Assembly (NCBI GenBank): GCA_963667255.1
Contig: OY762940.1
Location: forward strand, 352,001-416,000
Direction: 5' to 3'
From: Candidatus Cloacimonadota bacterium
GTDB lineage: Bacteria > Cloacimonadota > Cloacimonadia > G963667145
Length of the DNA stretch: 64,000 nt
Positions 25,030 to 58,773 of the stretch are shown here, piece after piece; position 1 is the stretch's first letter; each line of letters begins with the position of its first letter. Made by a program: the position numbers and the translations under genes. Under the pieces are notes generated by a model. It ran no database searches. It had not been told where the DNA came from and saw nothing but the letters and a program-made list of their open reading frames with translations.

Positions 25030-28000
25030 CTAAAATTTGACCATCGCCTTTATGTAATTATACTCTTGGTCATAACTATATACCGGAGTAACACCAAATC
25101 GAGTACAATAATTTACATAGTAATTAATTCTATCCTTTCTAGATTTATCAAACCAAGAATCTGTCGCTATAGAAGAACCTGCCTCCATACCCCCATTAAT
25201 AATGGTGATAGTAAGAGCAAAAGAATATACCTTGTCTGAAGATTGACTGCCGGTGCCAGTATCCCAATAATCATGCATAACAGCGTGACAAGAAGGAATA
25301 TAACCATCTCGGGCTGTCATCCAAAAGAAAATGCTACCATACCAAAATAGAACAGCATCAGACAATAAGTTATCTGGATGATCCAAAAGTATTTGCTTAT
25401 CCCCATAATAGTCTGCACTCAGAGGTCCATAATTATAGTTCCAAGAGGTTTGAAGAGCACCACGACCATAATACCATTGCCCAGAAGTAATGGGATAGGT
25501 CGTATTCGTAGTAGCTTGGTAATCATTATATGCATAATGATCGCCTCCATGCTCCGCGTTAGGGTCATAGTACCAAGTAGCAGTGTTATTTAACCCATAT
25601 ACAGCACACTCTCTCGGATAAACATAACCCCAATTAACATCCCCATTAGAACCAGTAGTCTCATGGCTGGTATTAGCAAGGAAAGCTGCCAACTCTCTTT
25701 TATTATAAGCATTATCAGTATTTCCTAAAAATGCATTCTTACCAGTCAAACTAGGATGCTTAGATGTATACAAATTTATCGCTGAATCTAATGCAGTCCA
25801 CCTAAACAAGAATTTATCAGGAACATCACCCCAATATGGATAATAAGGCACCCCTTTGCTACCATTATAGTAATTTCTATTAGGATTCCATTGATTAAAC
25901 TGTGCCTCTGTCATATATTTCGCCAGTAACGATGCATCCATCCATATCGCATAGAGTGTAATATTGGCTGACACAGGAATACTATCATCTTTTGCATATT
26001 GAGTGCCCCCAGTAGAGCCCGCAGCCCACTTGTCGAATTTCTTGCCAGTAGGAACGGTAAAGCTACACGCAGGTGCGGTATAGTTAACCGGACCGCCCCA
26101 CACTGCATAGAGCGTCACACTACTTGTCGGAGTGTAATTTGAACTGAGGTTGTTAGTAGGTATCGTTGCACTTGCGGTCGTAGCCCATCCCAGCAGCTTC
26201 TTATCCACAGTCTGACCTGTCATAGAGCCAGTGCCACCATTGGCATTGAAGCTGACGGTGTATCTATTACTGCCTGCCGTAATGCCTGTGCCACTATTGA
26301 GCGTCGTAGAGTTACCTTTCGTTACAGTTACCTGGGGTGGCACCGTGCCTTGTCCACCGTTGAGATCGTAGGTAATGGTGTATTGCGGAGCCCATATCGC
26401 ATAGAGTGTCATATCGGCTGTTGGTGTGATGTCAGCATTCACGGTATAAGATGTCCCTGAGCCATCTGCGTTAGTTGCCCATTTGGTGAATACCTTGTCA
26501 GTAGGAGCGGTAAAGCCACACGCAGGTGCTTTGCAGCTATTGCCGGAGCCCCACACTGCATAGAGCGTCACATTTCCTGACGGAGTGAAACCTGTTTGAC
26601 CAAGGGTGTAAGAAGTTCCTGTTCCATTGGATGCAGTGTTCCATCCTGTCAGCTTCTTGAGCACAGTCGAGTCCGTCATAGTGCCAGAGCCAGTATTTCC
26701 ATCGAATTTGACGGTGTATTTATTATTAGTGCCTGCACTGAAGCCTGTGCCACCATCGAGCATCACAGAGGTCCCAGCCTTCCACACTACATATAGTGTC
26801 ATGTTCCCTGACACAGGGATATTTGATGCACCAAAATCGTATTCAACAGTTGTTGCATTTGAAGTCTTAGCCCATCCCAGTGCCGTTTTGCTCACTTTCT
26901 GACTGTCTATCGAACCGGCGCCATTGTTGTTGTTGTAGAAGATTGTATCATAACGAGTAGCATCAGATGGTTTACTAGCAAGAGTCGCATTAGACCCTAT
27001 CTGCACATACTGCGTAGATGGCGTCGTGCCTGCTCCACCGTTGAGATTGTAGGTAATGGTGTATTGTTGCTTCCACACGGCATAGAGGGTAATATCAGTG
27101 AGGAATTGCACTTGTTGCCCCGCTGTGTAGGCGACTGTGCTAGACCCACTGGTCGTAGCCCATCCAGTTAATGTATATCCGCTATACACCATACTGCCCT
27201 TATCGGCGATAGTCACTTTAGCCCCATACTCTACAGTAACAGCAGAAGGAACAGTTCCCGAGGTGAGAGTAACAGTATTGACATAGGTAATCGTAGGTTT
27301 CTTCTTCCACACTGCATAGAGCATAACATCATTGAGGAATAGCTTTCGTTGTCCCGCTGTGTAGGTGGCTGTAGTAGCACTGCTACTCTCAGCCCATCCA
27401 GTAAATGTATATCCGCTATACACCATATTGCCAGTATTCCCAGGGATATCTATTGAGTCTCCATAGTTAGGGTTAGTCGCTGAAGGAACACTCCCCTCTG
27501 AGATACTGACATTAGCTTTGTAGGTAATCGTAGGGTTCTTCTTCCACACTGCATAGAGGATAACAGCACCCGAACTTGTAAATTTCGCTGTATCTCCCTC
27601 CTTATATGTAGCCACAGTCGCCGTACTATTAGTATCCCAACCGGTGAATGTGTAATTTGTCTTTGTTAAAGTGCCTCTCCCTAAGATAATCGTGGAATCG
27701 GTAGTGAAGAAAGGATTAAGTTCTTGAGGAAGGATAGGAGCTGTTCCTCCTGTATTTCCATTGCCGTTATAGGTGAGATTGACTGAGCCTCTCCAAATAG
27801 CGTAGAGAGTAGTGTCGCTCTCCGCATCCAGTTTCACTCCCGGGTTATAGGTCGTTCCAGTATTATCGCTCTTACTATTCCAATGAACAAATCCATTATC
27901 TGTTTTTGTAAAACCGCAAACAAGAATAGTCTGGTTTGCTCCAGTAGTAGGAGACATAGAGCCACCGTCAGCACCGTTGCCATCGTATGTTATCTTGAAG

Positions 28001-58773: not shown

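Follow-up and report, generated by a model that had tools for sequence, protein, structure and literature searches.

A conserved trio of giant FN3-stalk lipoproteins in Candidatus Cloacimonadota, one with a predicted chitinase tip

The 64,000-nucleotide stretch of DNA analysed here (the window; positions 352,001 to 416,000 of contig OY762940.1, assembly GCA_963667255.1) comes from a Candidatus Cloacimonadota bacterium and carries a gene for a giant predicted lipoprotein, referred to as A. Most of A is a stalk of FN3 domains that recurs, with the same number of domains in the same order, in two paralogues, B and C, encoded elsewhere in the genome. The reading favoured here, with moderate confidence and on the basis of sequence, is that A is a surface stalk of fixed length, likely O-glycosylated, for attachment and spacing, and that its chitin-cutting tip would serve access or anchoring, not feeding. 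The finding draws its interest mainly from the trio of fixed length and the lead on glycosylation, and less from the chitinase, which is the least general part and an accessory in one species. The host genome (G000) is a single contig of 1,587,896 bp and is 98.86% complete. It encodes BamA (found in 5/5 genomes), LpxK, KdtA, LptC and a LolA-like protein, and on these markers the cell is classed as diderm.

The stalk and its three paralogues

Gene A lies within a minus-strand frame that runs from 25030 to 58773 with no stop codon and comprises 11,247 codons when counted from GTG; the computed mass of the mature protein is 1.22 MDa. An earlier note on the window, made from the letters alone, had singled out this stop-free 33.7-kb frame and given the protein 11,247 amino acids (aa). 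The frame stands, and the protein length does not, since the probable ATA start yields 11,230 aa (Table 1). An assembly chimera, which the note had raised as a risk, is not what is seen: assembly of reads from two runs, X1 and X2, gave one 44,456-bp contig each, spanning 24868 to 63000 with no differences, and the depth over A is flat (62.6 and 63, respectively). A run from a second sample (X3) gave short pieces only. X1 and X2 come from one sample that is possibly the source of this DNA, so that independent support for A comes instead from a syntenic orthologue lying between the same aminotransferase gene and dnaE in 5/5 relatives. Identity between A and its orthologue in the sister species G001 is 0.78/0.84/0.51 by codon position, which indicates purifying selection on A.

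A home-built hidden Markov model (HMM) detects 75 FN3 domains in A directly and 79 after four domain-sized gaps are filled, and an iterated HMM detects 73-78 per protein in the 16 intact proteins of the family, a set that leaves out C of G001 (frameshifted) and C of G002 (broken at a contig end). Pfam returns weak fn3 matches along the first 8,200 residues. The predicted fold of a five-domain piece of the stalk is five beta-sandwiches (pLDDT 68, pTM 0.49), and the best PDB matches of this model are FN3 arrays. The earlier estimate of about 80 FN3-like domains is therefore sound.

A, B and C together occupy 99,675 bp, or 6.3% of the genome. Identity is 27.8% between A and B (over 10,492 columns), 27.3% between A and C and 37.6% between B and C. 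All three are present in 6/6 genomes of the genus, and in most of them B and C are neighbours. When the N-terminal 959 aa of A were used as the query (E<=1e-15), matches were found in 6 of 232 phylum genomes, all of this genus, and in 0 of the other 226. Among cluster representatives, 11 of the 150 top matches are fragments of the A/B/C family, each colinear with it. A search for full-length homologues (candidates of 5,472-17,413 aa), which missed the orthologues of the genus, returned one distant FN3 protein, P0001, at 24%. A is thus one of three conserved paralogues and not the single-gene device that the note had described. The homologue, genome and literature searches made revealed no identical architecture. 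In G001 a frameshift (~951200-951330, near residue 4,240) splits C into pieces of 4,256 and 6,695 aa, through either an assembly error or a real break. In G004 only, the interval between B and C (661420-737601) holds a 29-kb polysaccharide locus, genes for three FN3 lipoproteins of 3,369-3,687 aa whose tips are DUF285-like, and one small gene that is repeated several times.

Domain register was tested domain by domain because a global MAFFT alignment forces colinearity. Segmented separately, with domain-sized gaps filled, A, B and C each have 79 domains. The best match of a domain is the domain of the same index in 79/79 cases between B and C, 57/79 between A and B and 49/79 between A and C; no shifted run occurs, and the misses are scattered or fall within the five-domain super-repeat. 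The span matching residues 45-8230 of A measures 8,163-8,426 aa in the 16 intact proteins, and across the 15 others the largest indel relative to A is 22 aa, down to ~30% identity. Other arrays of the genus vary in size, with 13, ~3 and at least 37 InlB-B repeats in different proteins and 19-38 domains in a second FN3 family. The units of these variable arrays are similar and can recombine, whereas DNA repeats are absent from the stalk and likeness between its domains is just 24%.

Extended domains of this type measure up to ~4 nm each. Taking this value and the 3.3 nm per domain of the Salmonella adhesin SiiE as bounds, 79 domains would form a stalk of 260-320 nm if it is an extended rod; the SiiE value comes from 53 domains in 175 nm (PMC6272769). 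The computed mass and this estimated length agree with the lipid-anchored tether of about 1.2 MDa, a few hundred nm long if extended, that the note had proposed. The fixed domain number, the density of the glycosylation motif and the non-AUG start had escaped the note.

The constant domain number also admits an explanation in which A, B and C are bound side by side as an in-register cable or lattice, either a hetero-oligomeric filament or an ordered layer on the surface or in the periplasm, so that no chain can change its domain number. The shared number and order of domains fit such an arrangement, as do the retention of the trio throughout the genus, the adjacency of B and C, the similar promoter-like blocks, and a stalk that is more conserved than the GLUG tip in 10/10 orthologue pairs. 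The arrangement is judged unlikely, however, in that stalk length differs by up to ~240 aa between A and B, the ATA/ATC start of A would give amounts unequal to those of B, and descent alone can produce colinearity. A complex prediction for domains 53-55 of A, B and C scored 0.11 against a mark of 0.32 and counts neither way, its controls having remained unfolded.

Table 1. Features of gene A, its paralogues and the candidate transferase (window positions unless a genome is named)
Feature	Position	Strand	Remarks
Giant lipoprotein A, probable coding sequence	25030..58722	-	11,230 aa from ATA; open frame reaches GTG at 58773
Lipoprotein signal peptide, 24 aa, and lipidated Cys (predicted)	58648..58722	-	Cys codon 58650-58648
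Stalk, ~79 non-identical FN3 domains	34078..58647	-	Domains on average 24% identical to one another; D-(S/T)-hydrophobic motif at 234 sites; colinear with B and C
Domains 59-73, an old five-domain super-repeat in three copies, common to B and C	36115..40920	-	From domain segmentation
Four GLUG/M26_N-type glycine-rich modules	28924..34077	-	No HExxH; evolves faster than the stalk; last part in four of five orthologues
13 InlB-B (Listeria-Bacteroides) repeats, accessory spacer	25945..28923	-	Some local duplication; blocks 68-80% identical in DNA
GH19 chitinase-branch domain	25033..25944	-	Glu11038, Glu11055, Ser11110, Glu11197 (GTG numbering)
Shine-Dalgarno sequence AAGGAG	58729..58734	-	Conserved in 6/6 A orthologues
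TTGACA hexamer in conserved promoter-like block	58825..58830	-	Predicted from sequence
Repetitive extragenic palindrome (REP)-like elements between A and dnaE	24660..24900	.	~20 genomic copies of one segment; outside the protein
Paralogue B, 11,057-aa lipoprotein	G000 491876-525049	+	Same stalk, ~7 GLUG modules, no enzyme tip
Paralogue C, 10,918-aa lipoprotein	G000 526084-558840	+	Same stalk, ~7 GLUG modules, no enzyme tip
Single-copy TMEM260-like GT-C protein, PF11028	G000 966325-968667 (L089:1325-3664)	+	Candidate O-glycosylation transferase

A glycosylation motif along the stalk

The motif D-(S/T)-(A/I/L/V/M/T) is that of Bacteroidota O-glycosylation, in which the glycan begins with mannose and Glu is disfavoured in place of Asp (PMC12871550). 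A contains 274 such motifs compared with 61 in shuffled sequences (z 28, 4.5 times chance), and B and C contain 201 and 238. It is the motif-densest protein of more than 200 aa in the proteome, and cytoplasmic proteins lie at chance (0.96). Glu and Asn versions of the motif are depleted, and the third position favours I, L, V and M. Conservation follows the motif closely: 158-213 of the 234 stalk sites are kept in the five orthologues, 85% of orthologue positions keep a Ser or Thr where the motif has one, compared with 52% for other Ser/Thr, and the motif Asp changes to Glu in 1.5% of positions compared with 8.4% for other Asp.

The FN3 fold does not itself demand the motif, since 139 unrelated FN3-array proteins (150 matches from which 11 family members were removed) have a median ratio of 0.98, with five reaching 2.5, and the FN3 lipoprotein G004_D2325 has a ratio of 0.41. 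Over-dispersion for the motif is seen among exported proteins (2.43, n=119; 0.88 for 519 cytoplasmic proteins), and the most motif-rich of them is a GLUG protein without a Pfam FN3 match. Heavy O-glycosylation of A, B and C is therefore likely, as far as residue patterns can tell.

Several other motif-bearing proteins were encountered. A G000 locus (173129-182658, minus strand) encodes non-lipoprotein GLUG proteins, one of 1,558 aa with 29 motifs (z 9.8) and an apparently split neighbour (326 + 949 aa). Another (783069-792372, plus strand) encodes five exported proteins without a Pfam or NCBIfam match, three of them motif-rich, which are possible envelope or export machinery. Three FN3 arrays of other organisms, P0017, P0059 and P0105, are motif-rich too (ratio 4.3-4.4); P0105 is named as cargo of the type IX secretion system (T9SS), P0059 is lipoprotein-like, and P0017 is a fragment of a giant built in the same style that is not colinear with A, B or C.

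The motifs would have a different meaning if the stalk were an unglycosylated adhesin stiffened by Ca2+, with Asp-Ser/Thr pairs acting as metal ligands or strand caps and with length set by reach past the lipopolysaccharide. SiiE uses conserved Asp residues for Ca2+, is stable in length and needs that length to pass the lipopolysaccharide (PMC6272769); in the present case the motifs cluster at fixed FN3 positions and the genome has a large polysaccharide locus. Against this, the motif is not enriched in 134/139 other FN3 arrays or in G004_D2325, enrichment does occur in a GLUG protein with a different fold, its Ser and Thr interchange preferentially, and its third residue is constrained. Such a purely structural role is improbable.

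A candidate for the enzyme is a TMEM260-like protein of the PF11028 family. Of the phylum genomes, 118/121 have this family, and of 14 controls Bacteroides alone has it. We know of no activity of bacterial TMEM260 homologues. Human TMEM260, of family GT117, O-mannosylates B-strands of Ig-like IPT domains (PMC10214176), and in A, B and C the motif likewise stands most often at the start of strand B. Unlike the human case, the connection of the bacterial homologue with the motif is a hypothesis, put forward by this analysis, under which the PF11028 protein is the candidate motif transferase.

Tip, gene start and export

Distal to the stalk are glycine-rich modules, for which the nearest Atlas clusters with an assigned family are GLUG/M26_N. 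Three module heads were detected in A and four in 3/5 orthologues, the first head of A being divergent; the four modules named by the note are accordingly confirmed. A profile search of this region against solved structures gave 0 matches, and the fold is presumably a beta-helix. The zinc motif of the ZmpB/IgA1 (M26) metallopeptidases, HExxH, is absent from A, B and C of G000, and what is shared with these peptidases is the N-terminal GLUG/M26_N region only. The repeat count of the note also agrees with the sequence of the next region, which has PF09479 matches near residues 9,950-10,940 and 13 repeat-end motifs.

The GH19 domain that the note had placed at the far end is recognized by PF00182 (E 9.5e-34, 117.6 bits against a cut-off of 25.5). 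Its four key residues (Table 1) are invariant in a six-row alignment, are aligned with those of 8x2v and 7v92, and were mapped by motif to the standard E69, E87, S120 and E203 of GH19 chitinases (GH19ED, PMC8547705). The PDB matches listed are chitinases or chitinase-like in 31/31 cases, with 0 endolysins. The catalytic residues thus appear intact and of the chitinase branch, and cutting of chitin is predicted. The closest GH19 found, at 36% over 299 aa, is that of a lipoprotein of G002, and database relatives are mostly T9SS-tailed proteins (~40% over ~200 aa). GC content at third codon positions is 0.29 in the GH19 segment, compared with 0.45-0.50 just upstream and 0.41 genome-wide.

The distribution of these parts argues against the chitinase as the purpose of the stalk, which the note had taken it to be. 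Four of the five A orthologues end before the InlB-B repeats, the fifth (G001) has ~3 repeats and no GH19, and B and C lack both; GH19 therefore occurs on 1 of the 18 A/B/C proteins, and no GH19 remnant was found downstream of A in G001. As the add-on is missing from B and C, the plain tip is placed as ancestral, with the InlB-B and GH19 tip accessory to A, and GH19 may have been gained in this species or lost in G001. Among 41 genomes, GH19 is present in two, on A here and on a different, 5,033-aa lipoprotein of G002 (793663-808764, minus strand). That protein has a few FN3 domains, at least 37 InlB-B repeats, GH19 directly after an InlB-B repeat (the same junction as in A), further on a GH18-like domain without DxxDxDxE, the usual GH18 motif, and a small domain resembling a carbohydrate-binding module. 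Its gene is an insertion flanked on both sides by a copy of a gene for a peptidase M30-like lipoprotein, of which G000 has a single copy.

Foraging, in which the stalk would serve to digest chitin away from the cell and to feed the cell or a cross-feeding partner, was part of what the note had proposed and is now very unlikely. It draws on the intact catalytic residues and on G002, which has, besides the InlB-B/GH19/GH18-like lipoprotein, a separate GH18, so that chitin matters to 2/6 species. The rarity of GH19 on the stalks speaks against it, and so does the rest of the genome, which is 98.9% complete: profile searches with positive controls found no GH18 in G000, GH20 in 0/5 genomes, and GH3 and NagB in 0/6, and NagA was over cut-off in 0/5, with weak amidohydrolase matches only. 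Most of the transporters seen among 217 scanned exported or membrane proteins handle amino acids, peptides, purines and ions. As no genes for catabolism of N-acetylglucosamine were found, the products of the chitinase are likely not usable as food by this cell.

GH19 chitinases can attack fungal walls, which would suit the attack device named by the note. Attachment to prey and digestion of its wall, as in the giants of Omnitrophota, can draw further on a small genome, on the reported link between giant genes and predation (10.1101/2023.11.21.568195) and on a bacteriolytic, endolysin-like GH19 of a myxobacterium (PMC9098779), but is the least credible reading, given chitinase-type PDB matches throughout, five species without an enzyme on A, no adjacent secretion or uptake genes, no SecA/DEAD domain in A by Pfam, flagellin in 0/6 genus genomes, and no ATPase of pili or the type II secretion system (T2SS) over cut-off in 3/3 genus genomes (G000, G001 and G002; present in G008 and G034).

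The start of A is probably ATA at 58722 and not GTG at 58773, because an in-frame ATA or ATC stands 6-7 nt after the conserved AAGGAG in 6/6 A orthologues and because, for A of G002 and G005, no canonical start yields a complete signal peptide. B starts at ATG behind the same Shine-Dalgarno sequence. ATA and ATC are starts of low efficiency. An upstream TTGACA is present in 17/18 A/B/C genes, the 18th being cut by the locus edge; the blocks around it are similar among A, B and C, and a scan downstream gave nothing above chance. In G000 as a whole, the pairing of TTGACA with a TATAAT-like hexamer peaks at a spacing of 21 nt, not 17 (23 cases compared with 1-9 elsewhere).

The lipobox reported by the note is upheld, with its Cys at 58650 and G/S-C-T-D-V at the Cys in 6/6 A orthologues, and by eye the translation has no obvious hydrophobic run beyond the signal peptide. 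The note had also seen no T9SS C-terminal signal, and indeed TIGR04183 finds no such cargo over cut-off in G000, G001 or G002, with 67 in G008 and at least 150 in G034; it was used with these positive relatives in place of PF18962, which is silent in controls too. Housekeeping genes flank A (dnaE downstream and a divergent aminotransferase gene upstream), in agreement with the statement that no secretion, immunity or sugar-uptake genes adjoin it. A weak BamG-like match (70 bits against a cut-off of 250) was noted at L106:11559-12911 (minus strand).

Proposed function and known systems

Under the favoured reading of a glycosylated, length-setting surface stalk, A, B and C would be processed by Sec, Lgt and Lsp, anchored by lipid in the outer membrane and displayed at the surface by a route other than the T9SS; an Lpt-linked surface route for lipoproteins has been reported for Bacteroides (PMC13692018). 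The stalk would receive its O-glycans in the periplasm from a candidate transferase, the TMEM260-like GT-C protein, and would then form an extended glycosylated rod of 260-320 nm that holds a GLUG-type binding tip ~300 nm from the cell, where this tip would mediate adhesion. Together the three giants would likely make up a brush of sugar-coated chains on the cell. A would be less abundant than B owing to its ATA/ATC start. In this species the InlB-B spacer would lift the added chitinase past the tips of B and C, where it could cut, penetrate, grip or release from chitinous material such as a host lining, a cuticle, a fungal wall or a particle.

A wider proposal is tentative and rather doubtful. 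Here, the whole outer interface of a genome-reduced lineage that has lost T9SS cargo, pili and flagella would consist of three titin-like ruler lipoproteins of 79 position-specific FN3 domains each. The trio, with >700 O-glycosylation sites in all and perhaps arranged as an in-register cable, would make a protein-scaffolded glycocalyx with a set thickness of ~300 nm, and accessory tools such as a chitinase would be plugged via InlB-B spacers onto A as the minor, non-AUG-throttled member. If true, this proposal would carry Bacteroidota-type O-glycosylation over to Cloacimonadota and single out the TMEM260-like GT-C protein as the missing transferase.

A number of observations weigh against the favoured reading. 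With regard to length, the register of A with B and C is weak in domains 1-40, and the constancy of the stalk may come partly from a lack of recombination, a non-selective reason suggested by the absence of DNA repeats and the low similarity of its domains. With regard to glycosylation, the motif is not enriched in 38 small lipoproteins (0.83), and Ala (0.94) and Thr (0.85) are not enriched at its third position though both are common there in Bacteroidota. The motif occupies the start of strand B in 126/233 domains and many copies sit at recurring FN3 positions, so that a capping or Ca2+ role for its Asp is possible. The motif is, moreover, enriched mainly in Bacteroidota, and a 2025 review calls the Bacteroidota transferase undiscovered (PMC12871550). 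With regard to location, the Bacteroidetes surface lipoprotein export signal is K-(D/E)2 or Q-A-(D/E)2 (PMC5080379); this exact consensus is absent in A, and what stands after the Cys in A, B and C is a scatter of acidic residues. No exporter for a 1.2-MDa lipoprotein was identified in the genome searches, and a periplasmic location is thus possible.

A works like a giant spacer adhesin but falls outside the adhesins of the type I secretion system (T1SS), T9SS cargo, M26 peptidases and the Omnitrophota giants. Giant non-fimbrial adhesins with Ig repeats also include LapA and Bap. Like SiiE, A has a long beta-sandwich array as spacer, a presumed distal binding region and a length fit to clear a surface layer (PMC6272769). 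Unlike SiiE, it carries an N-terminal lipoprotein Cys, has no T1SS beside it, is built of FN3 and not BIg domains and has about twice the mass; its domains are mutually divergent and position-specific, it belongs to three paralogues of equal domain number, and it bears a dense glycosylation motif. T1SS adhesins in general have a C-terminal signal, no Sec signal and a T1SS operon, whereas A has an N-terminal lipoprotein signal and housekeeping neighbours; the tandem beta-sandwich spacer is shared, as 79 FN3 domains of a different fold family.

The Omnitrophota giants resemble A in exceeding 10,000 aa, in coming from an anaerobe with a small genome and in combining attachment domains with a glycan hydrolase, but they are rich in transmembrane regions, mostly have SecA DEAD domains, and are encoded near genes for T2SS or sugar import (10.1101/2023.11.21.568195). 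The accessible text of that preprint, searched by term, contains no Cloacimon-, chitin, lipoprotein, GH19 or GLUG, and that of a 2026 preprint no Cloacimon- or lipoprotein. Targeted literature searches found no description of the A/B/C family; subscription journals and preprint supplements, such as the giant-gene tables of 10.1101/2023.11.21.568195, fall outside their scope and may list it. With Bacteroidota O-glycosylation A shares the motif in exported proteins and the disfavoured Glu (PMC12871550), while differing in phylum, in having hundreds of sites per chain and in preferring I, L, V or M but not A or T at the third position; the modification is known here from its motif alone. The GH19 domain has both catalytic Glu, the water-binding Ser and the +1 Glu of CHIT chitinases (PMC8547705), and it is matched best, at ~40%, by loopful plant-type chitinases and by bacterial GH19s with a T9SS tail. 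Unlike CHIT chitinases, it ends an 11,000-aa lipoprotein without a carbohydrate-binding module, in a genome in which no chitin catabolism was found.

A 1.6-Mb genome that spends 6.3% of its DNA on three chains, with no domain gained or lost down to ~30% identity, offers a testable case of a bacterial length-setting surface protein and of the export of megadalton lipoproteins without T1SS or T9SS. The motif density strongly predicts Bacteroidota-type O-glycosylation outside that phylum, and co-occurrence with PF11028 names a candidate for the transferase that the 2025 review lists as undiscovered.

Two minor features of the region may be added. REP-like palindromes similar to those between A and dnaE also lie between B and C, and they are common to other organisms in the read runs. 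At 9032-9799 of the window (plus strand), an R.PabI-family restriction gene lies behind an unannotated 387-aa open reading frame in a patch of 28% GC.

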